DNA from: Nanobdellota archaeon
GTDB lineage: Archaea > Nanobdellota > Nanobdellia > Pacearchaeales > GW2011-AR1
DNA: 64,000 nucleotides
Assembly (NCBI GenBank): GCA_038045765.1
Contig: JBBSXN010000005.1
Coordinates: 226,144-290,143, forward strand
Reading direction: 5' to 3'
Both the position numbers and the translations under genes were made by a program. Numbering within the stretch: the first letter of the stretch is position 1; each line of letters opens with the position of its first letter. The notes under the pieces are model-generated. The model saw only the letters and a program-made list of their open reading frames with translations, had not been told where the DNA came from and did no database searches. Shown piece after piece: positions 15,075-43,496 of the stretch.

Positions 15075-18000
15075 ATGATGCAAAAGAGGGCATTGAGTTA
15101 TTTATTTTTTAGCTTCGTCGCTGTTTTACTTTTAGTTTCAGTTGTGTCTGCTGTATGGTATAATCCTAATACTTGGTTTGAAAGTAAAAATAACGTTAGA
15201 TTAAGTCCTCCTGCTGAAAATAGTATTTTTGTTAATGCTGGTTACCTTGGACAATTAAATGATACCACTGCCCCGTATTCTTTTTCTCCTGGAGATGGAA
15301 ATGATTTTACTTTTTCTTTACAATTTAATAGTGCTTCTGGCGTCACTATACAGCGTATGAGTTTTTCTCATACAGGTTATACCAATGATGAGTATTGGAG
15401 AACTTATGGAAACCTTGCGAGTGTTTATCCATTAGTAATATTTGATTCTTCTGGAAATAAAATAAATAACGTTATGGTAGAGCCAGTTTTGACAGTGAGT
15501 TCCGGCGTACAAAATTATAGATTCTATATTCAACCAGGATACAATATATTTATGGGTGGTGCTTTAACTATTATTTTGAGTAATGGAGATGCAGTAACTC
15601 TTAATATTCCTGCAGGTGTTGGACAGACAGTTAGTTATGGAACATATGGTCAAGGCGGAGGAGGAAATCCAAATGCATGTACCTCATTTACATATGGTGA
15701 TTGGACTCCAGCAACATGTTCATATGGAAGTCAACAAACTAGAACTGTGACTGGTTCTCCGGCTGGATGCACTGGTGGAAGTCCTGAAGGAAGTTCAAGA
15801 ACTTGTCCAACCTGCACAGATAGTGATGCAGACTCGACACATCTTACTGGTTTGAACTTTGGTGTTTTTGGTACAGCAACCTATTACGCTGGAATAAGTC
15901 AGAGTGATTATTGTGGTAGCCCTTCAGCTGGACATGCAAATATATTATTTGAGTCTTATTGCAGACCAAGCGATGGAACTCCATCTACTGAATATTATTC
16001 TTGTGAGTATGGATGTGCAAGTGGAAGATGTTTAGATGCTCCTGTTGTTGCTTCTTGTACTGATTTGAATGTCACCACGAAGGCTTTGATTAATAGTAGA
16101 TTTGTTTATAATTCTGCTACTGGAAAATGGGCTGATAGCGATGGAGATTTGCTTCATTTGAATAGCAATGATTGGGTGAATAAGAGCCAATATGTAATCC
16201 TAGTTGCTGACAATGGAAGACAAGGCATTTATGAAATTACACAACTTACAAATAGTTCTTCTACTACTATTCCGAGTGATGATGAAATAACTTTGAAGGA
16301 TATGTCAACTGGGGCTTCAACAACTGCTAAAGCTATCACTGAAGGTGCTGGAAATATAACTCTGCTAGGAGCAAGTTATCAGTATAATTATAGAGGAACA
16401 CAAATTATCCCAGAGAGATCTAGACAAGTTAAGTTTAATTCTATGAAAGATTATTCTTCTTGTAGTATTTATACAGCGCCGACTTGTACTGATAGCGATG
16501 GTGGATTGAATTATAATGTTAAAGGATATACTAATGGAACAGATGCTAATGGGAACAAAGGTATTGCTACAGATACATGTGTTGATTCTTCTCCTGCAGG
16601 TTCTGTTGTGATGGCAGGTCCTGATTTAGTTGAAGTTTATTGTGATAACTCTCTTGCGAGTGAAAGAAGAACAACTTGTCCGAATGGATGTTATGATGGG
16701 GCTTGCGTTTATGGGGCTAATCAAGAAATTAGTTTGACTAATGTAAATAATATTGCTAATTTTAATCTTGGTAATGATTTAATGAAGGTTAAGTTACTTG
16801 CTGCTACAGATGTTTCTGCAACTATTGAGATTATTGATGGTCAAGAAGGTGTTGGTGCAGAAATAACTGAAGGAACTTCCAAAGTCATTGGAGGAGTTAA
16901 TGTTTATCTTGTCAGTGTTGATGAAAATACTGCACTTAATAGTATAAGTGCAGTCGTAGTTTTATCCTTAGAGCAAGTTTGTAAGGAATATATAGCAGAT
17001 ATAAAGAATCCTTCTGACTTCATCAAGAGTGGTTTGGCATTTGAATTGGATGGAAATGGAAGTTATACTGGTTCTGAGTGGGTTAAAGGTGGAAGCGGAT
17101 ATAAGGAATATTCTTATGATGCTAATTATGCTAACTGGAGAAATAACCATGATGGTAAATCTTATTACTTTGGCAAGACTGTGAAAGTGTTTGATGATGT
17201 TTCTTTTGATGTTAAGAAAATATTTGATGAGATTATTGAATCTGGTTTATGTGTAGAAAGAGAGTTTAATGGTGAATCTGCTTATATTTGTGCTTATAAT
17301 GGCTTAACAGGATCTAATGATTATAATTCTATAATTTGGTTTAATGATAATGTAATGGTTGTTGTTGATGTGGCTATTTGGGCTAAGGCAGTAAGTAACT
17401 CCGATATTAATGAGATTAATGACAAGAACTTGAATTCATTGGTAAGAGATATACAAAATAATCAGTATAAAGATATTAGTGAGAATTTTGAGTTAGATAG
17501 TGTGTTTAATTCAATTGTTGGAGATGATTTGCAATTGTGTTCATCAGATGTTTCTAATGATGGTGGATTTACCTTTGGAGCTTATTGCAAGATAGAACCG
17601 GTTGTGTGTCCTGAATATGGAAGACAGGTTGAAAAGTGTTATCGTTATGTAAATGGTAAAGAAGTTGTTAATGAGAAACAACTTTATTGTTCTCCTGGAG
17701 TATGTTCGGGATGTATGGTTCCTAGATGGATGGGATATGATTTTGCTGGAAGCAAGACTGAAAGCGTTTGTATTCCTTATGGAACAAGATTAGCTAATTC
17801 TCAAGATTCAGGTTCTGAGAGAATTTATGAAGGGTATTATACTGAAGGAGATAAGGAATACCTTAATTTGACTATATTTGATACAAGTTCAGGTTATTTG
17901 GATTTAGATATTGATGGTGCTGTGTTTAAGGGAGAGATATATGAATCAGCTATAGTCGATGCTGGCGAAATAATATTTACAGTTAAGGAAATATTTACTT

Positions 18001-18362
18001 CTGAAGAAGAAGGAGATAATGATGCGGAAGGATATATTGAAATAAGTATCGTTGAGAGCTTTGATGCTTACTGTAAGTATGATGGTGATTTGTATGAGCA
18101 GAAGGGTGATGATGCTGAGTGTCAGAATAACTATGAATGTTCAAGTAATGAGTGTAGGACAGGACAATGTGTAAATACTTATGTTGGTGTTTCACAGAAT
18201 ACGAATATACTTGTAAAGATAATATGTAGAATTGTTAATATTCCTCCATTTGGAGATGAGGATAGTTACAATCAATGCTTGTTAGAGTATGCTGGAGGAA
18301 GCGACGGAGGAACAAGTTCAGGTGGTTCTAATGGTGGGGGAAGCGGTGGATCTTCCGCTTAA
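15075..18362 (+). CDS. giant secreted protein (1095 aa), paralogue 1: signal peptide, conserved N-terminal domain, TSP1-like 4-Cys module, conserved C-terminal Cys module, Gly/Ser tail
   Basis: The signal peptide and leader MQKRALSYLFFSFVAVLLLVSVVSAVWYNPNTWF is shared with 29348 and 32696. ACTSFTYGDWTPATCSYGSQQTRTVTGSPAGCTGGSP is one 4-Cys module. CQNNYECSSNECRTGQC lies near the C-terminus. The probable true start is 15078. Confidence 0.7.
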   Translation: MMQKRALSYLFFSFVAVLLLVSVVSAVWYNPNTWFESKNNVRLSPPAENSIFVNAGYLGQLNDTTAPYSFSPGDGNDFTFSLQFNSASGVTIQRMSFSHTGYTNDEYWRTYGNLASVYPLVIFDSSGNKINNVMVEPVLTVSSGVQNYRFYIQPGYNIFMGGALTIILSNGDAVTLNIPAGVGQTVSYGTYGQGGGGNPNACTSFTYGDWTPATCSYGSQQTRTVTGSPAGCTGGSPEGSSRTCPTCTDSDADSTHLTGLNFGVFGTATYYAGISQSDYCGSPSAGHANILFESYCRPSDGTPSTEYYSCEYGCASGRCLDAPVVASCTDLNVTTKALINSRFVYNSATGKWADSDGDLLHLNSNDWVNKSQYVILVADNGRQGIYEITQLTNSSSTTIPSDDEITLKDMSTGASTTAKAITEGAGNITLLGASYQYNYRGTQIIPERSRQVKFNSMKDYSSCSIYTAPTCTDSDGGLNYNVKGYTNGTDANGNKGIATDTCVDSSPAGSVVMAGPDLVEVYCDNSLASERRTTCPNGCYDGACVYGANQEISLTNVNNIANFNLGNDLMKVKLLAATDVSATIEIIDGQEGVGAEITEGTSKVIGGVNVYLVSVDENTALNSISAVVVLSLEQVCKEYIADIKNPSDFIKSGLAFELDGNGSYTGSEWVKGGSGYKEYSYDANYANWRNNHDGKSYYFGKTVKVFDDVSFDVKKIFDEIIESGLCVEREFNGESAYICAYNGLTGSNDYNSIIWFNDNVMVVVDVAIWAKAVSNSDINEINDKNLNSLVRDIQNNQYKDISENFELDSVFNSIVGDDLQLCSSDVSNDGGFTFGAYCKIEPVVCPEYGRQVEKCYRYVNGKEVVNEKQLYCSPGVCSGCMVPRWMGYDFAGSKTESVCIPYGTRLANSQDSGSERIYEGYYTEGDKEYLNLTIFDTSSGYLDLDIDGAVFKGEIYESAIVDAGEIIFTVKEIFTSEEEGDNDAEGYIEISIVESFDAYCKYDGDLYEQKGDDAECQNNYECSSNECRTGQCVNTYVGVSQNTNILVKIICRIVNIPPFGDEDSYNQCLLEYAGGSDGGTSSGGSNGGGSGGSSA

Positions 18363-18368
18363 AGTTTC

Positions 18369-21300
18369 ATGAAGAGTAGTTATTATATTTTATTTTCTCT
18401 TATTGCTTTATTTGCTTTTGTTAGTTTGAGTTTTTTTGTTAGTGCAGTTTATCAAAATGATTTTAATTCTTTTGATAATGATTTAAAAAATAATATAAAT
18501 CATTCTAATTTTATTGACTTAAATAGAGATTTATATAAAATATCTTCTGAAGAGATATCTTTGACTAGTAGAGTTGCTTCTATTTTTGGTGTTGGAAAAG
18601 CAGTTGAGAAGAGAAATAGATTAGTTGCTGAATCTTTGGAAAGAAAAGAGGCTATGATTGACTTAGCTGAAGAAAATCCTGGCTTATTTCTATCCCAAGC
18701 AATTCCAGAGGAAGAACAGAATGAAAAATTTGAAGATGTTAAAGAAAATTTAGAAAAGGAAACAAGTCAAGAAGGTACATTATTGATTATGGAGAATCCT
18801 CATTTTCATGATCCTGTAAATGTGAATCATGAAGGCATGGATAATTTCAATTACTTCTTAGATACTAAAGATGAGAGGTATAATTTGAAATTCGCTGATG
18901 GTTCTGCTCCCGGTGCTTTTTCAGGATCTAGAGTTAAAGTTAGTGGAGTAGAGCTTGGAGATTATCTTGCTACTTCAAGTGCTGAAGCAAGCGGTTTTGA
19001 AGTTGTTGAAAGTTCTCCCCCTATAAGGGCTGAAAATTATGGTGTCCAGAAGATAGCTATAATTATTACAAAAGCTCCTGGAGATGAAGATTATGATCTA
19101 CCTTTTATAGAAAGTCATATGCAAAAAATAAATGATTATTATAATGAAGTAAGTTATGGGAGGGCTAGTTTGGAATGGGATGTTTATGGGCAATATGATG
19201 TTGAAGGTAGTGGATATGTTTCCATTACTCCTGAGATAGATTTAGATATAAATTTCAGTAAGTATTCTAGAATTATTTCAATTGATGAAAGAAATTGTTG
19301 GGGTTGTGCAGGTATAGGTATCTGGTCTCATTCCACTAATGAAGGAGAATTGAATATATCTGAGACTTGGGTTAAACCAGTAATTTTTCAGTCTTCTAAT
19401 TATTATAGTGTAATCGGACATGAACTAGGCCATAATTTTGGAGTGTTACATGCTAATAATTTAAGATGTGGAGATAAATATATAGATGATTTTGATAAAT
19501 GTATAAGCTATGAATATGGAGATCATTTTGATATAATGGGTTCAAATATTTATAGCTTCGAGACAGGCCATATTAACTCTTTATATAAAGAAACTATAAC
19601 TTGGCTTGGAAGCAATGAGATTGTTGAAGTAAGCTCGGATGGAATTTATACTTTAAATGCTTTTGAAAACTTAAGCGATAGAACCTCTTTAAAGATTCCT
19701 CGTATATTTGATGAATTTAGAAATGGTGAACGTTTTTATTATTTAGAATATAGAACTCCTGTTGGTCAGGATTCTTTTATTAGCAATACTCAAACTCAAA
19801 ACGGTCCTCAAGTTAGAATAGATAAATATTATTCAGGCTGGGGTGGCGGAGGAGATTCTCAGCTTCTTGATATGAATCCAGGAATATATCCTAGAAATGT
19901 CGGAATTAGTGTTGGGAATGTATTCTTTGATTCTGCAAGCAATGTTGAAATTAGAACTCTAGAGGTTAATTCTAAAAATGCTACTGTTCAAGTTAAAGTA
20001 AGCAATAAGACTTGTATTAGAAGAGCACCTACATTTAATATTTATCCTCATAGTATTTCAGGTACTTTGCATGAGACTTTTTATTATTCTTTTGAACTAA
20101 TAAACAATGATGAAAGTATATGCCCTGCTAAAGAAATATACCTTAATAATTCTAATCGAGAAGTCTCATTTTATATGGAGTCATATCCTTCGTATATATC
20201 TTCTAGTCCAGATTACCCTGCTTTAATAGCATCTGGAGAAAAGATAGAAGGCGTAATTATGCTTTATCCTAATTACTTTAGTAATGGTGGCGAATTAAGC
20301 ATAGATATATTGAATGCTGAGTCTGGAAGTATGTATGCCTCTCAAAATTTAGAATATCATGTTATTCCTGCTAATAGTGAACCAGTCAGTTTTGCAGGAG
20401 AAGATAAAGCAAGAAAATTCTTTTACGTTAGTAATTTCTTTGGTAATGGTTATTACTTGATAGATGAAGATGGTAAGGTTTATAGAAGAGGGTCAACAAG
20501 GTTTACAACAGATAATGTTAAAGAATTTCCATTTGGAAATAATATAAAAACGGCCTTTATTGATGGAGGAGAAAGTATTGTTATTTTAGATTCAGACAAT
20601 AAATTTTATGAAGGCGGTAGGAATATCATTTCTAGAATAAATAAATTTGACAAGATGCAAATTGATAATGATTTACCTTATTCTTATCATAATGTTCAAG
20701 ATATAGATATTTATGAATCAATATATGATAATTATAATAGTATTAGAAATCTTTTAATTTTACTTGATGATGGGTATGTATTTGCTAGTTCTGATATAAT
20801 AGATAGAGATAGTTGTATAACTTGGGATGGAAGAAGAGATTTAGAAAGAGAGGATGAAAGTCATGCCATAGCCCTATTACCTTGGAATGATTTTAATAAA
20901 CCTGATGGAGGCATTTATTCTCTTGAGACTATAGGATACTATGTCTTAAGTAAAGATGGCACAGTTTATGGATGCGGAGATGTGAATATATCTTATACTC
21001 ACTTTAATCAGCCATTACCTGCTGATTTGGGAACTGAAGATAGGACTGCTGTTGCTTTTGCACTTGATCAAGAAAAGGGCATTGTAATGGTTGATTCATA
21101 TGGTGAAGTTTATACTTCTGGAACTTTGACTCATCAAGGAAGTCCTTCATTTGGGCAGAATATCGCTAGAGATATACAGATTCTTCCTAGTAATGTAGAT
21201 GATGGTGAGGAAGGTGTGTCTGGTGAGGATGTTGCAGGATATGGCATCCTTAAAGGAACTGGGGAAATAATATCTTGTTCTGAAGGAAGAGGATGTGGAA

Positions 21301-21857
21301 CTGATATAATTATCTGTAATGATGATAAAGATTGTGATGATTTGAATGATGATACTGTTGATACATGTATTAATCCTGGCACTGTTGAAAGTTATTGCAG
21401 AAATGAAGGTGGATCTGGAAAGACTTGCACTGATAGTGATGGATTTGATATTACTGCACTTGGAAATGTGAATTATGATGGTGCTGTTTATAATGATGAG
21501 TGTTTAAGCGAGAAAGAAATATTGGAATACACTTGTGCTAGTTCTGGTTGGTTTAGCAGTGAGAAGGAAGTTAAAGCAAATAATAGAGAGTGTCAGTATT
21601 CATGTAGTGGAGGAAAGTGTGTCGATCAGGATAAGAATGTGCAGAGAGTATGTTCTGATAATGATGTTAGTAATAAATTGGATGTATATGGGGCTGTTTT
21701 GTTCAAAGGAGATGAATACAAAGATTCATGTGTTGAATCTGGATTAAGTGTAAAACAGTATTTCTGCGTTGATGACAAGTTAAGGAATTTTGTAAAGAGA
21801 TGTGCAAATGGGATGAGATGTATAAGTGGAAGTTGTCAGTATATTCCATCTGCTTAG
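18369..21857 (+). CDS. secreted metzincin-type zinc metalloprotease-like protein (1162 aa) with Cys-rich C-terminal modules
   Basis: N-terminal signal peptide. HELGHNFGVLH (19419-19451) matches HExxHxxGxxH. The C-terminus carries CQYSCSGGKCVD and CANGMRCISGSCQY modules. The gene starts 7 nt after the 15075 gene, which suggests an operon. Confidence 0.65.
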   Translation: MKSSYYILFSLIALFAFVSLSFFVSAVYQNDFNSFDNDLKNNINHSNFIDLNRDLYKISSEEISLTSRVASIFGVGKAVEKRNRLVAESLERKEAMIDLAEENPGLFLSQAIPEEEQNEKFEDVKENLEKETSQEGTLLIMENPHFHDPVNVNHEGMDNFNYFLDTKDERYNLKFADGSAPGAFSGSRVKVSGVELGDYLATSSAEASGFEVVESSPPIRAENYGVQKIAIIITKAPGDEDYDLPFIESHMQKINDYYNEVSYGRASLEWDVYGQYDVEGSGYVSITPEIDLDINFSKYSRIISIDERNCWGCAGIGIWSHSTNEGELNISETWVKPVIFQSSNYYSVIGHELGHNFGVLHANNLRCGDKYIDDFDKCISYEYGDHFDIMGSNIYSFETGHINSLYKETITWLGSNEIVEVSSDGIYTLNAFENLSDRTSLKIPRIFDEFRNGERFYYLEYRTPVGQDSFISNTQTQNGPQVRIDKYYSGWGGGGDSQLLDMNPGIYPRNVGISVGNVFFDSASNVEIRTLEVNSKNATVQVKVSNKTCIRRAPTFNIYPHSISGTLHETFYYSFELINNDESICPAKEIYLNNSNREVSFYMESYPSYISSSPDYPALIASGEKIEGVIMLYPNYFSNGGELSIDILNAESGSMYASQNLEYHVIPANSEPVSFAGEDKARKFFYVSNFFGNGYYLIDEDGKVYRRGSTRFTTDNVKEFPFGNNIKTAFIDGGESIVILDSDNKFYEGGRNIISRINKFDKMQIDNDLPYSYHNVQDIDIYESIYDNYNSIRNLLILLDDGYVFASSDIIDRDSCITWDGRRDLEREDESHAIALLPWNDFNKPDGGIYSLETIGYYVLSKDGTVYGCGDVNISYTHFNQPLPADLGTEDRTAVAFALDQEKGIVMVDSYGEVYTSGTLTHQGSPSFGQNIARDIQILPSNVDDGEEGVSGEDVAGYGILKGTGEIISCSEGRGCGTDIIICNDDKDCDDLNDDTVDTCINPGTVESYCRNEGGSGKTCTDSDGFDITALGNVNYDGAVYNDECLSEKEILEYTCASSGWFSSEKEVKANNRECQYSCSGGKCVDQDKNVQRVCSDNDVSNKLDVYGAVLFKGDEYKDSCVESGLSVKQYFCVDDKLRNFVKRCANGMRCISGSCQYIPSA

Positions 21858-21882
21858 TATGGTGTGGGATCGGTAATTACTA

Positions 21883-22365
21883 TTAATAGTATTTATCTAA
21901 AATAAACCTCAACTCTGGGTGGAATTTGTCAGAAGTTTTTAGGAGAATCTTTATTTTGTCTAGAGATATGAATTCCATATTTTCTACTTCGTCTTTGTTG
22001 AATTTGAAAGGTCCTTCACTTTCTGCTTGATATATTGAAAGGAATTTATGTATTTGTTCTTTCCCTAGATATTCAGATTTAGCTATTAAAGAAAGAGGCA
22101 ATTTTATGCCTAATTCTTCTTCGAGTTCTCTTAAAGCGCCTTGCTGGTGAGATTCTCCTGCTTGAACATGGCCTCCTGCAGAAGTTGAAAAGAATCCTGG
22201 GCAGAAAGACTTATTTTTGCTTCTTATCTGTAAGGCAATTTCTCCTTTTTTATTAAAAATTAAAACATGTGCTATTCTATGAGGCAATTTTTTTTTGTAA
22301 ATCTCCGAATATTCTTCTTTTCCTATTACTTCATCCTTATCATTTACTATGTCTAAATATTCCAT
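21883..22365 (-). CDS. Nudix hydrolase
   Basis: Nudix box GGHVQAGESHQQGALRELEEELGI. Confidence 0.7.
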   Translation of the reverse strand: MEYLDIVNDKDEVIGKEEYSEIYKKKLPHRIAHVLIFNKKGEIALQIRSKNKSFCPGFFSTSAGGHVQAGESHQQGALRELEEELGIKLPLSLIAKSEYLGKEQIHKFLSIYQAESEGPFKFNKDEVENMEFISLDKIKILLKTSDKFHPELRFILDKYY

Positions 22366-22371
22366 CTTAAT

Positions 22372-22884
22372 TTATTTTGAAAACAACTTAATAGTCTTTT
22401 CTATTTCTTCTTTTATACCTTGGATGCAGTCGTAAGCTTTTACTTCGTGTTGGTTTACCCATTTATAATTTGAGAATGAATCTTTTTCTAGCTTGACTTC
22501 ACCTGATTTGTATTTTGCTGCAAATTTGACAAGAATTACTGGAATTCCATCTGGCCTGATGAAAGCTACTGAATTTATGTATACAAAATCGGAGTGGATT
22601 TCTATTCCTGCTTCTTCTTTAGTTTCTCTTATCAATAATTGTTCTATTGCATTTTCATAGTCTAAGATGTCTCCGTTTATTCTTGTTGGATTGTTTATTG
22701 GTAGGTCTTTCCATTCTAATTTACCACCAGTAACTGCGTATTTATTTGGATGAGCTTTCTCTCTCTCAGAACGTTTTAGAATTAAACAGCGTTTGTCTGA
22801 TTCTCTGTAAACTATTACATTAGCTACAACATAGAATAGTTTATCCTGTTTCGCTTTCTCAAGAGATATTTTATTAGAGGGCAT
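22372..22884 (-). CDS. Nudix hydrolase (second, divergent)
   Basis: GGKLEW....IRETKEEAGIEI is a Nudix-box-like segment. Confidence 0.55.
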   Translation of the reverse strand: MPSNKISLEKAKQDKLFYVVANVIVYRESDKRCLILKRSEREKAHPNKYAVTGGKLEWKDLPINNPTRINGDILDYENAIEQLLIRETKEEAGIEIHSDFVYINSVAFIRPDGIPVILVKFAAKYKSGEVKLEKDSFSNYKWVNQHEVKAYDCIQGIKEEIEKTIKLFSK

Positions 22885-22946
22885 AAAAATATTTGTTAAT
22901 AGAGTATATAATTATTGTTACAATTATCTGAAAAAATTTGAAAGGT

Positions 22947-23123
22947 TTAGCCTTTTAAGTCAGAGATACCAAGAAGAATGAATAATGCACCTAATCCTAG
23001 AACAAACCATACTATTGCACCTTGTAAAAAGACTAGTGCTGCTGGACCCCAATAATATGCCCAGACTAATATGCCTACTATAACTAGAATCAATCCAAGG
23101 AAAAGTTCAGCCCATTTGTTCAT
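22947..23123 (-). CDS. small (58 aa) two-TM membrane protein, not in supplied ORF track
   Basis: Reverse-strand ORF MNKWAELFLGLILVIVGILVWAYYWGPAALVFLQGAIVWFVLGLGALFILLGISDLKG. It falls below the 60-aa cutoff. Confidence 0.3.
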   Translation of the reverse strand: MNKWAELFLGLILVIVGILVWAYYWGPAALVFLQGAIVWFVLGLGALFILLGISDLKG

Positions 23124-23189
23124 ATTAATTTTAGCTTAAATGAGTATATAAATATTTTGGCGATTTTTGTGTCAATTGAGAGTAATGAA

Positions 23190-23894: not shown

Positions 23895-24010
23895 ATAATT
23901 TATAAGATTTTATGGTTTAAATATCTTAACTTTTTATAATCTTTATCAATAACTTCAAACTCTATTGAAGTTAAAAGTGGGTTTATAAATAAGTTTTAAT
24001 TGAGTAGAGT

Positions 24011-24628: not shown

Positions 24629-24671
24629 CTTTAGTTAATTTATATTTTGAAATGAAAGGAGGTAATGAATA

Positions 24672-25403: not shown

Positions 25404-25506
25404 TTAATTATTTTTTTGATTTTTTTTAGCTATTTTTAGGTTTCTTAAGAATGTTTAATTTATTCTTAATAGAAAGGATTAAAACTGCTTTTCTGATGTT
25501 AATTAC

Positions 25507-27605: not shown

Positions 27606-27723
27606 TTCTTAAATTGAGAAATAATAAAGAAGATAATTGTTATCTATAATATGATATTGAGTTCATTATCCTATATTTAATCGCGTATTGTAATAATTAA
27701 TATTTCTGATTTTATCCAATAAA

Positions 27724-32653: not shown

Positions 32654-32695
32654 CTTATGGAAAATATTTATATATCTGCAAGAAATGTTTCTTTA

Positions 32696-35194: not shown

Positions 35195-35243
35195 AAGACA
35201 GATGATTAATCATAACCTCTAGCTTTAAAAATGGTCTTTTCTT

Positions 35244-36242
35244 TTGTTTTATATGGAAAATGGTAATGAGAAAATAGCTCGTAAGAATTTACTTAGAAAT
35301 GGAGAGAAAGTAGATGGAATTAGTATTAATGGATATAATTTTGATAATGGTGTGGATTATGGTAAGTTAATTGAGAGTTTTTCTAGTACTGGATTTCAAG
35401 CAAGTGATTTTTCTAAGGCAGTTAATATTACTAATCATATGATTGATGCTAAATCAACTATATTTTTAGGATACACTTCAAATATGGTGAGTTCTGGCTT
35501 ACGAGACGTGATAAGATATTTAGTTCAGAATAAAAGAGTAGATATTTGTGTTACAACTGCTGGAGGAATTGAAGAAGATATCATAAAATGCCTTGGTGAT
35601 TTTAAATTGGGAGATTTTAGAGCTAATGGAAAGTTGTTAAGAGAGAAAGGAGTTAATAGGATTGGAAATATATTTGTAAGTAATGAATTGTATGTTAAAT
35701 TTGAAAAGTTTATGAGTGCTGTGTTGGACGAATTGTATGAAATGCAGGTTAAAACTGGTAAAATTGTTAGTCCTAGCGAAATTATTTGGAAAATGGGTGA
35801 AAAGATAGATAATAAAGAAAGTATTTGTTATTGGGCTTGGAAAAATAAAATAAGAATCTATTGTCCTGCTTTGCAAGATGGAGCTATTGGAGATAATATT
35901 TATTTTTCTTCTTTCAAACATCCTAATTTTAAGATAGATATAGTTGAAGATACAAAAAGATTGAATGATAGTACTATTGGACTGAAGAAAAGTGGTGCAG
36001 TAATTTTGGGAGCAGGTGTTGTTAAGCATAGTATATTGAATGCAAATATGCTTAGAAATGGATTAGATTATGCAGTTTACATTAATACTTCTCAGGAATT
36101 TGATGGAAGTGATGCAGGAGCAATGCCGGAGGAAGCAGTTAGCTGGGGAAAGATAACTGCTGGTGCAGAGAGTGTGAAAGTTTATGGTGATGCTACAATA
36201 TTATTTCCATTATTAGTTGCAGAGAGCTTTGCTAAGAAATAG
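35244..36242 (+). CDS. dys: deoxyhypusine synthase
   Basis: TSNMVSSGLRDVIRYLVQNKRVDICVTTAGGIEEDIIKCL is the conserved DHS core. Confidence 0.75.
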   Translation: MFYMENGNEKIARKNLLRNGEKVDGISINGYNFDNGVDYGKLIESFSSTGFQASDFSKAVNITNHMIDAKSTIFLGYTSNMVSSGLRDVIRYLVQNKRVDICVTTAGGIEEDIIKCLGDFKLGDFRANGKLLREKGVNRIGNIFVSNELYVKFEKFMSAVLDELYEMQVKTGKIVSPSEIIWKMGEKIDNKESICYWAWKNKIRIYCPALQDGAIGDNIYFSSFKHPNFKIDIVEDTKRLNDSTIGLKKSGAVILGAGVVKHSILNANMLRNGLDYAVYINTSQEFDGSDAGAMPEEAVSWGKITAGAESVKVYGDATILFPLLVAESFAKK

Positions 36243-36272
36243 TTATTTATAGTGTTTAGTTAATTTATATTC

Positions 36273-36950
36273 ATGCATTTTTCCTTAGTAGTACCAGTTC
36301 ATAATGAAGAAGAAAATATTAAATATTTGTATAAACAGATAAATGATAGTTTGAAAGAATTTTCTTATGAAGTTATAGTTGTGAATGATGGTTCTAATGA
36401 TGGAACTTTATTAGAATTGAATAAAATTAAAGATAAAAAGTGGAAAGTTTTAGATTTGGAGCATAAAGGCAAAGATTATGCTGTTTATGCTGGAATTCAA
36501 AAAGCTAAATCTCAAAATATTGTATTAATGGATGGTGATTTGCAAATTGATGTTAAAGATGTTGTTAATTTGTGGATGGTCTTTAAAAAAAACCAATTGG
36601 ATTGTGTTGTTGGCTGGCGTTTTGATAGGAAAGATGGTTTTGTGAAGAAAGTTTCTTCTTTTGTTGGGAATAGTTTTAATAATTTATTTTTTGGATTAAA
36701 AATAAATGATGCTAATTGTCCTTTGAAGATAATTAATAGAAAATTACTTGTAAATGTTAAATTCTTTAATCATTTTCATAGGTTTATATGTGCTTTAATT
36801 TCTTTGCAAAATGGCAAGATTGAAGAGATTAAAATTAAACATTTACCTAGAAAGTATGGAAAATCGCATTATGGCGTACATAATAGGATTTTTGGTAATT
36901 TGATTAGTTTGTTTAAAGTCAGATTTGGAAGAAGAGAGATATTTGGCTAA
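36273..36950 (+). CDS. GT2 polyprenyl-phosphate sugar synthase-like glycosyltransferase (DPM1/GtrB/AglD-like)
   Basis: LVVPVHNEEENI..., EVIVVNDGSNDGT and LMDGDLQ form a GT-A DxD region. The protein is 225 aa, soluble type. Confidence 0.65.
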   Translation: MHFSLVVPVHNEEENIKYLYKQINDSLKEFSYEVIVVNDGSNDGTLLELNKIKDKKWKVLDLEHKGKDYAVYAGIQKAKSQNIVLMDGDLQIDVKDVVNLWMVFKKNQLDCVVGWRFDRKDGFVKKVSSFVGNSFNNLFFGLKINDANCPLKIINRKLLVNVKFFNHFHRFICALISLQNGKIEEIKIKHLPRKYGKSHYGVHNRIFGNLISLFKVRFGRREIFG

Positions 36951-36960
36951 ATATTTATAT
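36951..36960 (+). promoter_or_regulatory. TATA box (atatttatat) inside the conserved element ggctaaatatttata upstream of surface-protein family member A
   Basis: It lies 22 nt upstream of ATG 36983. The same element ggctaaatatttataaactcgttt occurs at 38061-38084 upstream of member B. Confidence 0.4.
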
Positions 36961-36982
36961 ACTCGTTTTATCTTGATTGGTG

Positions 36983-37999
36983 ATGGCTGTTAAAAAGAGG
37001 GTCGGAGATAATTTAGGATTATATTTATTGTTAGGTGCTTTGGTTCTTGTTGTTTTATTTTATCAACCAGGAGCATTATTGAGTCCAGATTGTGCTGAAG
37101 GCCAAGTTTTGAATGATGCAGGTGTTTGTGAAGATGAATGGATGTCTGGTGATGCTTTTTTATATGATGAAGATGGAAATCTAGTTATCGATATACCTGA
37201 AGAATTTGAGAGTTTTACAGATCCTAGGGACCCAGATGCTTTTAACTTTGGTTCTGAATCTAAAGATTTTGATTTTCCTGAATTTCCCGTAGAATGGGAT
37301 TACCAAGAGGATTTTTATAATGCTTGTGTTGCTGGTGATGTTCCCGATATGGAAGAGAGATGTGGAGATATTGCCCCAATTGAGATAATTCCTCAATGCA
37401 ATCCTTCTCCAGCAGTTCCAGTTGCTAAAATTTATTCTAAAGAAATAACTTTAAATGGAGGGAATGCTTTTCCAGATTCCCGTAAACGAGCAACTATTGC
37501 AGCCGCTGTTGCTGACTTGCAAGGAGAGGCTAATAGAGATAGAACTAATATGATAACTGATTTTGATTGCGAGGGTAGTCCTGCTGAATCTGATATTACT
37601 TGTGAAGTTTTTGATGGTAGAATAAACTATAGAGTTGGTTTAGAGACATCCACACCTCAGAGTAATACTTGTACAAATCCTGGACCATCGACTGCAAGTA
37701 ATCCTATGCATTACGAAACTACTTTTTCTTCAAGTATTGCAGATGATGGTGCCTGTCAGGTAGCGTTGGAAGGACTTGGAAATAATTGGGTAGAGACAGG
37801 GCCTCCTAGTACGTTTAGCTGTCCTAGCGGTTGTGATCCAGCAGGTTCATATGCTTTAGATGTTACGCAAAATGCTGATGGTTGTACTGGTTATGCTACT
37901 AATGATGTTTACTGCGGTCCAAGAGGGGGAAGATTTAGCGGTAAAGTTAAAATAGATCTCTTTGCTTTCTTTACACATGATTGCCGAAGAACTGAGTAA
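36983..37999 (+). CDS. signal-anchored Cys-containing surface protein, mosaic family member A
   Basis: The ORF track uses TTG at 36977. ATG 36983 gives MAVKKRVGDNLGLYLLLGALVLVVLF, parallel to member D. LLSPDCAEGQ and SGKVKIDLFAFFTHDC are shared with member B. Confidence 0.6.
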   Translation: MAVKKRVGDNLGLYLLLGALVLVVLFYQPGALLSPDCAEGQVLNDAGVCEDEWMSGDAFLYDEDGNLVIDIPEEFESFTDPRDPDAFNFGSESKDFDFPEFPVEWDYQEDFYNACVAGDVPDMEERCGDIAPIEIIPQCNPSPAVPVAKIYSKEITLNGGNAFPDSRKRATIAAAVADLQGEANRDRTNMITDFDCEGSPAESDITCEVFDGRINYRVGLETSTPQSNTCTNPGPSTASNPMHYETTFSSSIADDGACQVALEGLGNNWVETGPPSTFSCPSGCDPAGSYALDVTQNADGCTGYATNDVYCGPRGGRFSGKVKIDLFAFFTHDCRRTE

Positions 38000-38097
38000 A
38001 ATTAATTTTCATCTTTCTTTTGCAAATCAATGTCTTAGAACGGCTTAATTTTATTTTTTGGCTAAATATTTATAAACTCGTTTCAGTTTAGAATGTT

Positions 38098-39879
38098 ATG
38101 AGTTTTAAAAGGAGGGCATTGCATAAAAATGCTTGGAAGACTTGGTCTTTATATTTATTAGCAGGATTATTTATTGTTGCGTTTCTCTTTTCACAACAAG
38201 GTGTTTTTTTAAGTCCTGATTGCGAGGATAATGATGATAGTTGTGTTCATGAGGGAGATGAAGATTATATTTCTTGGGAAATTCCTGGAGATGCTTATGA
38301 AGGTGTTCAAGACATAGAAGAGAGTATGAATGATGATCCTGAGACTGAAGATGTTATAGAGGGATTTAAGTTTGGTGGTGATTCTGAAGCACTAGATAAA
38401 GAAGCAGCCGATGCTGCTAAAGAAGCTCAAGAAGATGTTAAAGAATGTGTGGCTGATGCTGATGGAGATCCTGCTAAGCAAAATGAGTGTGGTGAAATTG
38501 CAGCTGCTGCTGGCGGATCTGCTAGTTGTAGTCCTAGTAGTAATCCTTATCCTAAGGTTATAAGAGATTTAGTTACAGTTACTTTTACAGGAGGAATTAC
38601 TGGAGCGCCTTCTGATGAAGCGGTTAAGTCTACTCTTTTACAGAAAGCAGGAGAGCTTAGACAGGAGAATGTAAATGAACAAGAAGCGATAGCTAATGGT
38701 ATGAAATGTAAGGCGTCTACTAAATTTACTAGATGTGAAAAAGAAAATGGAAGAGTTTCTTATTCTATGAAAGTTGAACCACTTAAGAAAAGCGGTGAAT
38801 GTAAAATTCCTAGCGGTTCTGGTGATCAATCTCCAGCTAAGACGGATAAAACTGATTCTTTATCGGCATCAGGTAGCAATGAAGCAGATTGTATAAATAA
38901 ACTTGGAGATAAAGCTAAGGAGTGGGTTCAAGGTCTTAGTTATACTTGTAAGACTGGAAAAATAGGAGCTAATTTCTTTGGTAATGGTGGGACTAATTAT
39001 GGTGAGTGTAAACCTATATATGCTACCTTTGATCTCGATGGAGTTTTTGTTTTATCTCCTGGAAGTTTGGAAGCAGGAACATGTACTGGAAAAGCATCTT
39101 TTACTATTTCTTGTGGTGATGGTCCACTTGTAGAAGGAATTTCAGGAAAAGTTAGAATTTATCTGAAAGGTACATTCACTCATTCTTGTAAACCAATTTA
39201 TGACAAAGAGGCTACTATTGATGGTAGTTCTGGTAGTGGATCTGGTTCAGGATCTGGAAGTGGTGGCAGTAGCGGAGGAGGTTCGAGTGGAGGCACATCT
39301 GGTGGGGGTGGTTCTGCTCCTGAAACTAGTCCTGGAATAAAATCTCCTAGTAGTGATTCTTCAGATAGTTCAGACGCAAATAGTAATTCTGCTAATCCAG
39401 GTAGTGATAGTTCTCTAGCTTCTGGTGATGTTAGTCCATTAACAGATAATTCTAATAGTGCAAATCAAGATAGTAGTAATGATAATTCTAATAGTGCAAA
39501 TCAAGATAGTAGTAATGATAATTCAAACAGTTTAAGTGAGAGTAATGATGCAAATTCTGGTGAATTATCTCCTTTCTTTTCTGCAATTAAAAATGCACTC
39601 CAAGGCCTTAGCGGAGATAGTAAAGATGAAGGTGAGTTGGTGAGCGATAATAGCCAGACCAATTCCCAGAATAGCGATACTTCAAAGTCAAATAGTGCTA
39701 TTAATTTCAATAGCCTTACTAGTGTTAGTAATTCTGATGAAGAGATATTAAGTCCAACGTTAGCTTCAATTAACTATATACTTGAAATTATCAAGGGTGA
39801 AGATACGGAAGTTATAGGTATCTTTCAACCAGTTGAAAAGGCACTTGAAGATTTGCAAGAGTTTTTTGAGGGAAGTTAG
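38098..39879 (+). CDS. signal-anchored surface protein, mosaic family member B (A-like core, G/S-rich and Ser/Asn/Asp-rich repeat tail, conserved C-terminal 45 aa)
   Basis: MSFKRRALHKNAWKTWSLY leader is identical to member C. FLSPDCEDND...SGKVRIYLKGTFTHSC is the A-like core. The tail carries SGSGSGSGSG and DNSNSANQDSSN x2.5. The C-terminus SPTLASINYILEIIKGEDTEVIGIFQPVEKALEDLQEFF is shared with member D. Confidence 0.65.
   Translation: MSFKRRALHKNAWKTWSLYLLAGLFIVAFLFSQQGVFLSPDCEDNDDSCVHEGDEDYISWEIPGDAYEGVQDIEESMNDDPETEDVIEGFKFGGDSEALDKEAADAAKEAQEDVKECVADADGDPAKQNECGEIAAAAGGSASCSPSSNPYPKVIRDLVTVTFTGGITGAPSDEAVKSTLLQKAGELRQENVNEQEAIANGMKCKASTKFTRCEKENGRVSYSMKVEPLKKSGECKIPSGSGDQSPAKTDKTDSLSASGSNEADCINKLGDKAKEWVQGLSYTCKTGKIGANFFGNGGTNYGECKPIYATFDLDGVFVLSPGSLEAGTCTGKASFTISCGDGPLVEGISGKVRIYLKGTFTHSCKPIYDKEATIDGSSGSGSGSGSGSGGSSGGGSSGGTSGGGGSAPETSPGIKSPSSDSSDSSDANSNSANPGSDSSLASGDVSPLTDNSNSANQDSSNDNSNSANQDSSNDNSNSLSESNDANSGELSPFFSAIKNALQGLSGDSKDEGELVSDNSQTNSQNSDTSKSNSAINFNSLTSVSNSDEEILSPTLASINYILEIIKGEDTEVIGIFQPVEKALEDLQEFFEGS
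39445..39530 (+). repeat. 36-nt tandem repeat (gataattctaatagtgcaaatcaagatagtagtaat x ~2.4) encoding DNSNSANQDSSN
   Basis: Seen directly. Copies at 39445-39480 and 39481-39516, then a partial third copy. Confidence 0.7.
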
Positions 39880-41303
39880 TTATCATCTTTTTTATAGAAT
39901 ATAACATAAATATTAGTTTCTTGTATTTCATCTATTTTTATATATTGATCATTTTCTTTTTCAAATATATACTGATTCATTAAAGCGTATGAATTGTATC
40001 TGTCAAAAAAAACTATTGAAGAATCATTAAAATTCTGCTCCTTGATGAGAGATAGATAGAATAATTTATCTTTTACGCATGGAGCGTAAAAACTTAGACT
40101 AGCTTCAGGAATGTCTGTGCTAGTTAGAAATGTTGAATTTGGCCATTTATCGCAGATTTCTTTTAACATAGGTTTCCAATTTTCTCTATCTATTTTTAGA
40201 CTATTTTCATAATATGTTGATAAGTTTGAAGTTATGAACAGAGAAATTATTAATAGAATTAAGATATGAGGTATATATTTATTCCAGTCTCTAGTTTTAT
40301 TGATTGAATAAGAAAGAATAATTATTAATGGGAAGATGGCAAAAGAAAGATATCTGGTTACAAGTATTGGTGTGTAGAAATAATCTATCAGGGATAATAG
40401 TATTATGGGTGTGATAAGGTAGAACAGTGCACTGTTCTTTTCTAGACTTTCTTGTTTTTCTTTAATTAAATGATATATTCCATAAATTACTAGGATAGTT
40501 ATCGCTATTGTTAGAATATTGATTTCTTCAATTTTATAGCTGTTTATGAATGATAGAAATATGCTTCCCAAATTGATTAGGTAGTTTTCTGTCTTACCTA
40601 TCCACAGAATACCTTTTTTGTGAGATATGTTTGTAAAAGCAATACTTACCCATGGAAGATATGATAAAATTATGATGAATAGAGATTTTAGATAGTCTTT
40701 ATTTTTATTATAAATAAACCAGATTATTATTTGGGTTAAAAGTAGTAGAAAACCGAGATAGAGAGTATAAATCAAGGCTATTGTGCTCAATATATATTTC
40801 CATTTATTATTTGATTTTTGGTCTTTTAGGAATATTAAGAAGTAATACCAACTTGCTAGTCCTAAAAGCCAGACTAATGTGTACATCTTTGCTTCTTGGC
40901 TATAATTGATTAGGTACGGCCAGAATGCTCCTAGCAAAGCTGCTAGATATGCAGTTTGTTTATTATTTGTAATTAATTTTGTTAATTTGTATAAATAAAT
41001 TAGTAAAATAGCTCCAAATAGTGCAGAAGGAAATCTAAGAGACCACTCCGATATTCCTATTAGAGATGTCCAAGCTTTTAGAATTAAGTAATACAGTGGA
41101 GGGAAAGGTGAATCTGCTAAATTTGTAAGTGTGTCTAACCAAGAACCAGATATTCTTCCAATAGTCATAAGTTCATCATGCCAGAGACTTGGTGCAGAGA
41201 TTTTGTATATTCTAAGGAGAAAAGCTAATAGGATAATTACTGATAGTAGGATATATTCTTTATTGGTTTTTATGTAATTTAATAATTTATTTTCTTTTTC
41301 CAT
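39876..41303 (-). CDS. GT-C-fold protein mannosyltransferase/ArnT-like glycosyltransferase (PMT_2, GT39/GT83-like), copy 1
   Basis: 475 aa, ~11 TM. The first-loop motif SLWHDELMT is the DE motif. The first ~45 codons are ~85-90% identical at nt level to the 45969 copy. Confidence 0.6.
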   Translation of the reverse strand: MEKENKLLNYIKTNKEYILLSVIILLAFLLRIYKISAPSLWHDELMTIGRISGSWLDTLTNLADSPFPPLYYLILKAWTSLIGISEWSLRFPSALFGAILLIYLYKLTKLITNNKQTAYLAALLGAFWPYLINYSQEAKMYTLVWLLGLASWYYFLIFLKDQKSNNKWKYILSTIALIYTLYLGFLLLLTQIIIWFIYNKNKDYLKSLFIIILSYLPWVSIAFTNISHKKGILWIGKTENYLINLGSIFLSFINSYKIEEINILTIAITILVIYGIYHLIKEKQESLEKNSALFYLITPIILLSLIDYFYTPILVTRYLSFAIFPLIIILSYSINKTRDWNKYIPHILILLIISLFITSNLSTYYENSLKIDRENWKPMLKEICDKWPNSTFLTSTDIPEASLSFYAPCVKDKLFYLSLIKEQNFNDSSIVFFDRYNSYALMNQYIFEKENDQYIKIDEIQETNIYVIFYKKDDN

Positions 41304-41359
41304 CTTAATATCGATACAAATAGCAGAAGATATATAAATAATGTGGCTTATTTTTAATT

Positions 41360-43492
41360 ATGAAGAGGTCTAATAATATTACAGTAAATTCTTCTTGGAA
41401 GAATTGGTTAATTGTTGTGTTGATTGTTGCAATCGTAGTATCTTCTTACTTTGTTTTTTATCAGGATAATATTTATTCTAAGTCTACCACTGGAGCTGTT
41501 CTTTGGCCATGGGAAATATTTGGAGACCCTTGTTATAGTAATCCTGGAGATTTAGATTCAGACGGCGATGGTATACCAGACAATGATGACGACGATGACG
41601 ATAATGATGGAATACTTGATGTTGATGAACCAACAACTGATTCTGATGGAGACGGAACTGAAGATGAAGTAGATACTGATGATGATAATGATGGAACTGA
41701 TGATTCACAAGACAACGATGATGATGGAGATGGAATAGGTGATAACGAAGATACAAGTGACGGAGATAATAATGTAAATGAAAATAGTGGTGATGACGGA
41801 GTTGATGATAATCCTAACGATGATGATACTTATACTATCATTGATGACGAAGTTGATAATTCTGTAAATAATGAGGATACAGATGATGATGGAGTAGATG
41901 ATGTTGTCGATACAGACGATGATAACGATGGAGTACCTGATGGTGAAGAACCTGATAATAGTGATTTAGATGGAGACGGAGAAACAGATGCTATAGATCC
42001 AGATGATGATAATGATGGTGTGGACGATAGCTTTGATAATGACGACGACAATGATGGAATTACTGATGAACAAGATTTAGATAATGATGGAGATGGAGTA
42101 GAAGACAGCTCTGAGGAAGTTACCAATGAGGATGAGGATACGGATGAAGATGGAGTAGATGATTCTGAAGACGTTGATGATGATAATGATGGCGTGAGTG
42201 ATGATGAAGACACAGATGATGATAATGACGGAGTAGATGATGAAGAAGTTGATAATTCAGATACAACTAGTGATTGTGAAGATGGACAATCACTAAATGA
42301 AGATGGTGAATGTGTTAGCGTTATTGATGAAGTATTGGAAGACATATGTAATGATATATTATCAGATTCTTTTTGTGATGGTGGTCTAGAGGAGATTATT
42401 GTAGGTGATGAAGAAGTTGATAATTGTCCAGATGGAACATCTGTTAATGAAGATGGTTATTGTGATGATGATAGCCTTTTAGATGATGTTCTTGATTGTG
42501 TTATCTTAGATGATTGTGATGATGAAATTATTGATGATTGTCCAGATGGAACATCTGTTAATGAAAATGGTGAATGTGAAGATGAGATTACTGATGATGG
42601 TGATTTAGATAACGATGGAATTGAAGATGAAGAAGATGGTGACGATGACAATGATGGAGTATCTGACGAAGAAGATCCCGATGATAATAATGATGGCGTG
42701 GGTGATGAAGAAGCTAATGATGATGAAACGGAAGATGAAGATGAAGAAGAGACGGATGATGAGGAACCAAGTGATACTTGTAAGGATATAGATAACGATG
42801 GCGACGGAGTAAACTCATGTGACGATTGTGACGATAATGATAGTACAAATAAGATAGTAACTGCAGATGCTGATGAAGATGGAATATCTACTTGTGATTT
42901 AGATTGTGATGATAATAGTGAAGATGTGCAAATTACTAAGGCGGATGCCGATTCAGATGGAAAGACTACTTGTGATGGTGATTGTGATGATAATAATAAA
43001 GATGTAAAACCAGGTGCTAGTGAAATGTGTCAAGATAATCTAGATAATAATTGCAATGAATTAGTTGATTGTGCAGATAGTGCTTGCAATGGTTATATAG
43101 TTACGGAAGAAGGATTTGCTATACCTGGTTCTATGTTTGCCCCTCCTAAGAGAGAAGTAGGTATGTGCTGTTCTGGAACACAGGTAGATCATCGATCCGA
43201 TAATAATAATTGCGGATTTTGTGGGAATGTGTGTGCTTCCGATAGATCTTGTAAATTTATATCTATTGCTCCAGGTTGTGTTATAGATAAATGTAAAGCT
43301 CCTACTGGATCAGGTTATCTTACTCAAGCAGATGCTGAGAAAGCTGGTGAAGTTGCTAAATCTAATTTTATCAAAGTATGTACTCTTGCAAAAAATGTTG
43401 ATCTTAGTTATTTTTCTGAGCCTATCTTAGATAATCAAGGTAAAGAAACTGGGCAATCATTCAAAGGTTTCTCTGTAGGCTTTTCTTTTTAG
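41360..43492 (+). CDS. hyper-acidic secreted protein with Asp-rich, thrombospondin-type-3-like (putatively Ca-binding) repeats and C-terminal Cys-rich MopE-like metal-binding motifs
   Basis: N-terminal signal anchor. ~25 repeats of D.DDDNDG..D (e.g. DTDDDNDGTDDSQDNDDDGDGIGDNED). C-terminal motifs CDDCDDNDS, CDLDCDDNSED, CDGDCDDNNKDVKPGASEMCQDNLDNNCNELVDCAD. Confidence 0.6.
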   Translation: MKRSNNITVNSSWKNWLIVVLIVAIVVSSYFVFYQDNIYSKSTTGAVLWPWEIFGDPCYSNPGDLDSDGDGIPDNDDDDDDNDGILDVDEPTTDSDGDGTEDEVDTDDDNDGTDDSQDNDDDGDGIGDNEDTSDGDNNVNENSGDDGVDDNPNDDDTYTIIDDEVDNSVNNEDTDDDGVDDVVDTDDDNDGVPDGEEPDNSDLDGDGETDAIDPDDDNDGVDDSFDNDDDNDGITDEQDLDNDGDGVEDSSEEVTNEDEDTDEDGVDDSEDVDDDNDGVSDDEDTDDDNDGVDDEEVDNSDTTSDCEDGQSLNEDGECVSVIDEVLEDICNDILSDSFCDGGLEEIIVGDEEVDNCPDGTSVNEDGYCDDDSLLDDVLDCVILDDCDDEIIDDCPDGTSVNENGECEDEITDDGDLDNDGIEDEEDGDDDNDGVSDEEDPDDNNDGVGDEEANDDETEDEDEEETDDEEPSDTCKDIDNDGDGVNSCDDCDDNDSTNKIVTADADEDGISTCDLDCDDNSEDVQITKADADSDGKTTCDGDCDDNNKDVKPGASEMCQDNLDNNCNELVDCADSACNGYIVTEEGFAIPGSMFAPPKREVGMCCSGTQVDHRSDNNNCGFCGNVCASDRSCKFISIAPGCVIDKCKAPTGSGYLTQADAEKAGEVAKSNFIKVCTLAKNVDLSYFSEPILDNQGKETGQSFKGFSVGFSF

Positions 43493-43496
43493 ATAA

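Follow-up and report, generated by a model that had tools for sequence, protein, structure and literature searches.

The 64,000-nucleotide stretch of archaeal DNA analyzed here, referred to as the window, carries between positions 15075 and 43492 a series of genes coding for large candidate surface proteins. This region forms no single apparatus; variable genes interrupt a conserved backbone of housekeeping genes at three or more separate places. Genes are designated by the start of their open reading frame (ORF) in the window; 32657 is the ORF-list name of a gene that probably starts at 32696, the second Met (MQKRFLNYLFF...), as in its paralogs and in the NCBI annotation. Profile scans with Pfam and NCBIfam covered all large proteins, and Pfam was also run at E ≤ 10 and on isolated domains. 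The genes of the region, and of its continuation beyond 43492, are as follows.

15075-18362, plus strand: 15075, a 1095-aa modular protein predicted to be exported, with signal peptide MMQKRALSYLFFSFVAVLLLVSVVSA cut before VW
18369-21857, plus strand: 18369, a 1162-aa metzincin-type Zn protease predicted to be exported, starting 6 nt after the 15075 stop
21883-27605: housekeeping backbone (two NUDIX, DUF2238, HTH, SIMPL, DHH/DHHA1, UPPS-acylphosphatase; Pfam), outside any apparatus
27724-28170, minus strand: 27724, a 148-aa pilin-like protein with 6 Cys and a class III signal-like N-terminus, overlapping 28167 by 4 nt
28167-29315, minus strand: 28167, a 382-aa M64-like Zn metallopeptidase-like protein, N-terminally anchored, with HEFSH (Peptidase_M64 E 2.9e-4, below cut-off)
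29348-32653, plus strand: 29348, a 1101-aa adhesin-like protein predicted to be exported (NCBI name: LamG-like jellyroll fold domain-containing protein)
32696-35194, plus strand: 32696 (32657), an 832-aa protein predicted to be exported
35244-36950, plus strand: deoxyhypusine synthase (DHS; DS E 1e-114) and a GT2 glycosyltransferase (E 6.9e-24)
36977-37999, plus strand: 36977, a 340-aa N-terminally anchored, Cys-rich acidic protein with one transmembrane (TM) segment and 14 Cys, paralog of 38098
38098-39879, plus strand: 38098, a protein of 593 aa, anchored at its N-terminus, that combines a Cys-rich domain with a long S/G/D/N-rich tail and whose C-terminus matches that of 46302
39876-41303, minus strand: 39876, a PMT_2 (GT-C fold) glycosyltransferase (PMT_2 E 7.3e-13), its N-terminus nearly identical to that of paralog 44509
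41360-43492, plus strand: 41360, a 710-aa N-terminally anchored, very acidic protein (27% Asp) with DxDxDGxxD repeats at 41555-42706
43862-44512, plus strand: 43862, a 216-aa paralog beyond 43492, its 5′ end 86% identical to 38098 over 85 nt
44509-45969, minus strand: 44509, a second PMT_2 GT-C glycosyltransferase (PMT_2 E 1.3e-18)
46302-47438, plus strand: 46302, a protein of 378 aa, anchored at its N-terminus, that looks coiled-coil-like by eye and has a low-complexity tail and a C-terminus in common with 38098

The organism is a tiny, Pacearchaeota-like DPANN archaeon from groundwater. The window has a GC content of ~30% and an archaeal gene content, including TBP, an ATP-dependent DNA ligase, GatD/GatE, GatB, an archaeal-type ProRS and DHS. 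Because DHS shares 65-80% identity with its counterparts in Pacearchaeota, Woesearchaeota and Nanoarchaeota metagenome-assembled genomes and only 35-47% with those of Diapherotrites and Aenigmatarchaeota, the DPANN membership put forward in the original prediction is well supported. Two contigs titled “Patescibacteria group bacterium” (L035 and L075) carry an archaeal-type DHS 61-67% identical to that of the window and are probably mis-binned DPANN contigs.

Comparison with relatives, which included 80 related loci around DHS, separates the backbone from its insertions; L070 and L081 belong to one relative (DHS 76% identical) and L082 to a closer one. The order HTH-SIMPL-DHH-UPPS-(pilin-like, M64-like)-DHS is kept among relatives, the DHH gene being found in 45 and UPPS in 19 of the 80 loci. 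Neither 15075 nor any gene from 36273 to 47438 occurs near DHS in these loci, and 29348 and 32657 have marginal matches only. In L070, only 99 nt separate the end of the M64-like gene from DHS and no giant gene intervenes, so that the 5.9-kb pair formed by 29348 and 32657 is missing there; between DHS and the NT/HEPN gene pair, L070 has ~1.2 kb coding for a single small anchored protein, where the window has ~11 kb. In L081, a metzincin ortholog (49% identity) sits between SIMPL and DHH with toxin-antitoxin pairs on its flanks, followed by a 2288-aa subtilase. The ORF of this subtilase (L081 14626-21492), which contains many repeated beta-domains and a run of N, fills the variable slot beside the metzincin ortholog. 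In L082, an ortholog of 15075 (72% identity) remains in place behind TBP and DUF7144, and the gene that follows has only the signal peptide in common with 18369, the remainder being similar, by eye, to the N-terminal part of the L081 subtilase. In relatives, other giant proteases at other positions, or nothing, stand in place of the cassettes of the window.

These observations bear directly on the original prediction that 15075-43492 encodes one system. The surface-protein genes are indeed clustered within ~32 kb, and some are paired with gaps of 3-6 nt or overlaps of 4 nt, as would be expected of a single dedicated and co-regulated attachment apparatus. Such an apparatus is nevertheless quite unlikely, given that nine housekeeping genes are interspersed in the region (two NUDIX, DUF2238, the HTH regulator, SIMPL, DHH/DHHA1, UPPS-acylphosphatase, DHS and GT2), that the cassettes lie on both strands with separate promoters, that each is independently present, absent or relocated in relatives, and that the paralog families continue beyond 43492, up to 47438. 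Comparative genomics had been proposed for the locus; synteny with relatives shows independent variable insertions in a backbone instead of one shared system.

The surface genes have a GC content at third codon positions (GC3) of 0.13-0.19, no higher than that of the housekeeping genes, which gives no indication of recent import; their higher GC content comes from the second codon position, owing to amino acid composition. No tRNA marks the insertion points, the only one noted in the window being a tRNA-Arg at 52873, and no integrase turned up in Pfam scans of the window. Toxin-antitoxin-like pairs (UPF0175/DUF3368, MazE/PIN and nucleotidyltransferase/HEPN-like) flank giant surface genes both in relatives (L081 9142-9932 and 13723-14515; L082 9183-9811) and in the window (14079, 47484-48540 and 58077).

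Three of the candidate surface proteins, 15075, 29348 and 32657, are adhesin-like and built from shared and shuffled modules, located on the plus strand as follows.

15078-15212, 29348-29482 and 32696-32830: common 5′ ends
15678-15809 (aa 202-245): four-Cys repeat of 15075 resembling the thrombospondin type 1 repeat (TSR-like; repeat hidden Markov model (HMM) i-E 5e-17)
15813-16034, 16485-16709, 21426-21842, 32069-32290 and 33974-34200: “CTDSD” modules, those at 21426-21842 belonging to the protease 18369
17586-17792: conserved Cys block of the 15075 family, CKxEPxVCPxxGxQ...C..CSPGxCSGCxVPRW...CIPYGxR, with invariant alignment columns
29675-30121: LamG_3 of 29348, preceded by the signal peptide
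30164-30295 and 30608-30739: TSR-like repeats of 29348
30752-30913: MBG_3 of 29348
from 32069: “CTDSD” module of 29348, followed by a T/G linker and, from 32414, a Cys knot
33278-33412, 33422-33550, 34232-34357 and 34538-34696: TSR-like repeats of 32657, which begins with an N-domain in common with 15075
33686-33895: PPC-like domain of 32657
from 33974: “CTDSD” module of 32657
34709-34837: Kazal-like motif of 32657
from 34955: Cys knot of 32657

The first 135 nt of the three genes are common at 74-88% identity and encode the same signal peptide and mature start (AVWWNPxTWF), and the three proteins also have a C-terminal Cys knot in common. A 93%-identical allele shows differences clustered among long identical stretches. 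The protein 15075 is made up of an N-domain also present in 32657, a single TSR-like repeat, a pair of Cys-rich “CTDSD” modules and a PsbP/Mog1-like domain, along with the conserved Cys-rich block, the C-terminal Cys knot and a G/S tail. The protein has no Pfam or NCBIfam match, and the profile of its family has none among PDB sequences. The family, at ~28% identity, spans aa 460-1075, and in some members LamG_3 replaces the N-terminal part; its best-conserved portion is the block at 17586-17792, which is poorly modelled (predicted local distance difference test (pLDDT) 44-69).

Laminin_G_3 exceeds its cut-off of 27.6 bits in 29348 (E 7.8e-24, 85 bits) and in the upstream membrane protein 5780 (E 6.7e-11, 43 bits), in agreement with the LamG/concanavalin-like domains originally reported in both. 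The MBG/Ig-like repeats also reported amount to a single MBG_3 copy in 29348 (aa 469-522, E 1.8e-13, 50.8 bits for a cut-off of 25), so the domain stands and the repetition does not. In 32657, the Kazal-like motif SPVCSNDEITYSNSCNAVAAGATVSCQGEC (aa 685-727) matches Pfam Kazal_1 at E 8e-4 as an isolated piece, below usual thresholds, and leech tryptase inhibitor among PDB sequences at E 0.023, likewise below the usual threshold; the whole protein returned only weak Kazal inhibitor matches from the PDB. The “CTDSD” module, of ~70 aa with six Cys and starting with C-[TSI]-D-[ST]-D, occurs in six copies in four proteins of the window and in many DPANN surface proteins (S-layer homology, PEGA and LamG proteins), and matches no Pfam family.

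The repeat HMM detects the TSR-like repeat seven times: 32657 holds four copies, 29348 has two and 15075 a single one. The copies are 42-53 aa long (most 43-45), have four conserved Cys each and follow the consensus CTSFTYSxWxxC...GxQTRT...PxGCxGGxPxLxQxC, with one YxxW and one near-invariant Arg. Their predicted fold is TSR-like: the AlphaFold2 (AF2) model of a tandem pair (pLDDT 91) adopts the elongated three-stranded TSR fold. The repeat nonetheless falls outside Pfam TSP_1 and, judging from the consensus, lacks the full WxxWxxW/RxRxR Trp-Arg ladder and the six Cys that form three disulfides, the third disulfide being the missing one; neither the whole proteins in Pfam and NCBIfam nor the isolated repeat at E ≤ 10 matched the TSP_1 profile. 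The “TSP1-like” label of the original prediction is therefore apt for the fold and not for the family. A profile of the tandem pair found a single match among PDB sequences, the TSR of a Plasmodium thrombospondin-related protein, in register at E 0.38, and a profile of the single repeat found none. Alignment with hhalign to a manually entered set of nine TSR sequences gave P 7e-4 and a probability of 26%. Support from sequence profiles is thus marginal, and homology to TSRs is no more than plausible.

All 120 listed homologs of 32657 match through this repeat, and many are bacterial, such as the cytochrome-c proteins of Anaeromyxobacter and Nitrospirota and one Kuenenbacteria protein; a few have a precomputed PTN_MK_C match. 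Searched against 1.84 billion cluster representatives, a profile built from 30 tandem pairs retrieved 1,971 proteins at E ≤ 1e-3, the closest relatives being bacterial, CPR and DPANN proteins. The four-Cys repeat of ~43-46 aa might be a genuine prokaryotic branch of the TSR superfamily that Pfam does not include, a proposition that we advance tentatively and hold to be doubtful. If it were true, TSRs would be no animal invention, and the neighboring PMT_2 (GT-C) enzymes might modify the W-x-x-C or Ser/Thr-rich surface modules. Eukaryotic TSRs are modified by DPY19 and POFUT2. The strong avoidance of N-glycosylation sequons described below would then fit a surface built on other glycan linkages. 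Compared with eukaryotic TSRs (Pfam TSP_1; TSR2-3 of TSP-1, properdin, Sema5A, MIC2), the archaeal repeat has four Cys instead of six, one YxxW and one Arg instead of the WxxWxxW/RxRxR ladder, and a prokaryotic distribution. TSRs are usually regarded as specific to animals, and a widespread prokaryotic repeat with a TSR-like fold is relevant to the question of their origin.

The resemblance to animal extracellular matrix (ECM) proteins led the original prediction to evoke eukaryotic mimicry, and one could imagine eukaryote-derived or eukaryote-directed ECM mimics used against a eukaryotic host. A TSR-resembling fold and a Kazal-like motif are present, and animal ECM proteins likewise contain LamG and TSP3-like motifs. 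We consider this explanation extremely improbable, since the native GC3 does not point to recent import, the repeat has its nearest relatives in proteins of bacteria, CPR and DPANN, and neither Pfam TSP_1 nor TSP_3 matches. LamG_3 and MBG are mainly prokaryotic families, and LamG_3, MBG, DxDxDG and TSR-like repeats are all common in prokaryotic surface proteins, so that mimicry in any specific sense is not supported.

A second class of candidate surface proteins consists of Zn proteases. In 18369, the following motif could be read from the sequence.

19419-19451, plus strand: zinc-binding motif HELGHNFGVLH (HExxHxxGxxH), aa 351-361 of 18369

The candidate Met-turn is Met aa 390 in FDIMGS, from 19527. 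The isolated domain scores 23.1 bits with Reprolysin_3 for a cut-off of 22.4; all eight Pfam matches are metzincin families, Reprolysin_3 alone exceeding its threshold, and doing so solely when the domain is scanned in isolation. The homologs carry Peptidase_M11 (PF05548), Reprolysin_5 (PF13688) and NPCBM_assoc, and an NCBIfam M6-domain match was found at E 2.5e-7; no match was found among PDB sequences. The motif, the Reprolysin_3 score and the domains of the homologs uphold the metzincin assignment made earlier. The protein also has a repeat-rich middle region (weak RCC1_2 match) and two C-terminal “CTDSD” modules. With the M11 (gametolysin), M6 and M12B (reprolysin-like) metzincins, 18369 shares HExxHxxGxxH, a downstream Met and (as predicted) secretion; it differs from them by a long C-terminal extension, propeller-like repeats and DPANN-type Cys modules.

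The second protease, the M64-like 28167, has orthologs adjoining DHS in L070, L048 and L001 and is paired with the pilin-like 27724. The N-terminus of 27724 reads MMNKKA, the cut, then LSSVIATTLIILVSIIAV (after KKA: LSSVIATTLIIL; longer reading: LSSVIATTLIILVSI), a class III signal pattern by eye, and the L070 ortholog retains NKKALSNIIAVVLVI. All its profile scores are below cut-offs (Pilin_N E 1.5; BasA/BasC 0.003-0.006). The archaeal pilin originally proposed stays a candidate, with a class III signal-like N-terminus kept in L070 and weak profile support.

The third class comprises the anchored acidic, putatively Ca-binding or low-complexity proteins 36977, 38098, 41360, 43862 and 46302, which lie beside the duplicated PMT_2 genes. 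Neither 36977 nor 38098 matches a Pfam or NCBIfam profile. In 41360, we counted 16 strict DxDxDGxxD motifs and, with the looser [DN]x[DN]x[DN]Gxx[DE], 18 motifs, mostly 13 residues apart, for 1.8 ± 1.3 in composition shuffles. Pfam TSP_3 remained silent on this protein even at E ≤ 10, so “TSP3-like calcium-binding repeats”, as the array had been called, is right as a description of the motif only. The likeness to TSP type-3 repeats lies in DxDxDGxxD at a 13-residue period in a predicted extracellular acidic protein; the TSP type-3 Cys pattern is lacking over most of the array, and Ca binding is putative. The Cys-rich C-terminal region of 41360 resembles MopE/MXAN_6577 (NCBIfam C_rich_MXAN6577, 0.0025).

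The 5′ ends and promoter-like regions, including TTTATATA, are kept between paralogs whose downstream parts differ, and 36977 and 38098 have their promoter and 5′ region in common (60 nt at 77% identity).

38087-38171 and 43851-43935: common 5′/promoter regions of 38098 and 43862
36942-37001 and 38057-38116: common 5′/promoter regions of 36977 and 38098

The genes 43862, 44509, 45953 (coding for a small 2-TM protein) and 46302 look like a segmental duplication of a module formed by an anchored protein and a convergent GT-C gene. Further upstream lies a glycan-assembly cluster (345-7768) with a WecG-type glycosyltransferase, a GT1, a Wzy_C polymerase/ligase-like protein, a Wzx-type flippase and 5780, whose order is kept in L082.

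5780-7768, minus strand: 5780, a polytopic membrane protein with at least nine hydrophobic segments and a C-terminal LamG_3 (5816-6238)

A homolog of 5780 occupies the same position in L082. The protein had been taken for a GT-C fused to LamG; it is polytopic, but its N-terminal part matches no GT-C profile, and the GT-C portion of that claim was not borne out.

A single N-terminal hydrophobic segment is present in each of the candidate surface proteins, and Cys represents 2.2-5.0% of their residues (1.3% in 46302), as opposed to at most 1.9% in the cytoplasmic proteins of the window. Export of these proteins is likely on both counts. N-x-S/T sequons are depleted in the 11 proteins predicted to be exported between 15075 and 47438, with 36 occurrences for 92.2 ± 8.3 in local-composition shuffles (minimum of 1000 shuffles: 69), whereas the reversed motif is at expectation (90 for 92.1). 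Cytoplasmic proteins contain 20 sequons for 26.1 ± 4.6 expected. Across the 80 related loci, the sequon ratio is 0.80 in candidate exported proteins, a milder depletion, and 1.12 in proteins without a hydrophobic segment. Since the depletion is specific to these proteins, it argues that they face outside, and it suggests selection against their N-glycosylation. Short motifs occur just after the N-terminal hydrophobic helix: x-L-S-P in 15075, 27724, 28167, 36977, 38098, 43862 and proteins of L070 and L081, and G-I-T-G-N in 29348, 32657 and 46302. Of 147 post-TM windows, 6 contain the pattern [VLIF]x[LF]SP, compared with 2 among 1124 cytoplasmic windows; most of the occurrences come from this organism and a near relative.

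Exported proteins of this kind could also serve as general envelope or foraging proteins without any host-specific role, whether associated with the wall or S-layer, as peptide-scavenging proteases, or as a Ca-binding or glycosylated matrix for particles or biofilms. We regard this alternative as possible though somewhat unlikely. It draws on the TSR-like repeat, which looks like a generic spacer in many bacterial periplasmic and extracellular proteins (c-type cytochromes, glycoside hydrolases, beta-helix proteins), on the abundance of envelope glycan genes in the window and on the fact that no adhesion partner is known. Core envelope proteins should, however, be conserved, and the genes of the window are absent or replaced at syntenic sites. 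Classic archaeal S-layer glycoproteins are expected to contain many sequons, the opposite of what we observed, and the combination of lectin-like domains with protease and inhibitor modules fits interaction with another surface. An archaeal S-layer protein was considered as a candidate and ruled against by the syntenic absence or replacement and by the 36 sequons found for 92 expected.

The explanation that we judge to be the rather probable one is that the window encodes a variable repertoire of disulfide-rich modular surface proteins, predicted to be exported and carried in at least three fast-turning-over cassettes, with contact with a host or partner cell, by analogy with cultivated DPANN archaea, as their most likely use. 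Adhesin-like proteins with common ends and shuffled LamG, MBG, TSR-like, PPC, Kazal-like, “CTDSD” and PsbP/Mog1-like modules between them (15075, 29348 and 32696), Zn proteases (the secreted metzincin 18369 and the anchored M64-like 28167 with its pilin-like partner) and anchored acidic or low-complexity proteins would leave the cell by the Sec pathway, be stabilized by disulfides and Ca2+ and coat the cell surface. Glycans or proteins of a partner cell or of a substrate may be the ligands of the lectin-like and repeat modules, and the proteases may remodel a surface layer. Conserved signal-peptide and repeat sequences are likely recombination points at which cargo is swapped, which would generate strain-specific repertoires. 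Being DPANN-encoded, predicted to be exported and variable between relatives, the proteins are candidate members of the proposed class of DPANN host-attachment surface proteins.

Several points weigh against this explanation. We know of no host for this organism and, to our knowledge, no member of the Pacearchaeota has been cultivated. None of 15075, 29348 and 32696 has a recognizable C-terminal membrane anchor, so these adhesin-like proteins may be released and not displayed. No pilus assembly gene (prepilin peptidase, assembly ATPase) was found in the window beside the pilin-like gene. The “CTDSD” modules, the N-domain and the Cys block of the 15075 family are without assigned function, AF2 models aa 556-1000 of 15075 with only moderate confidence (pLDDT 68), and the TSR-like assignment rests on enrichment among weak matches. 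For Pacearchaeota, the analysis provides concrete candidates, validated in part, for surface proteins and proteases, and swappable cassettes behind conserved signal peptides are the pattern expected for determinants of host range or of an arms race. The novel element is foremost the TSR-like repeat family; a variable DPANN surface repertoire is of an already known, still hypothetical kind.

The statement that no such attachment system is well characterized is fair, although the hypothesis is already in the literature for other DPANN archaea. LamG-like proteins on genomic islands of Mia14 (“ARMAN-2”) were proposed to function in host interaction (PMC5498576), lectin-like proteins and surface proteases of Nanobdella were proposed for host contact (bioRxiv 10.1101/2023.10.27.564410), and the genes that vary most within populations of Nanoarchaeota are those for surface proteins (PMC6142677). 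Compared with these DPANN systems, the window belongs to a Pacearchaeota-like lineage, has no pilus machinery nearby, contains TSR-like, Kazal-like and “CTDSD” modules and a metzincin instead of a thermopsin, and encodes very Cys-rich, sequon-depleted proteins where the others have many N-glycosylation sites. The likeness to the surface proteins of Mia14, Nanobdella aerobiophila and Nanohalobium lies in large proteins, exported or predicted to be so, with concanavalin/LamG-like jelly-roll domains, often strain-specific and located on islands.

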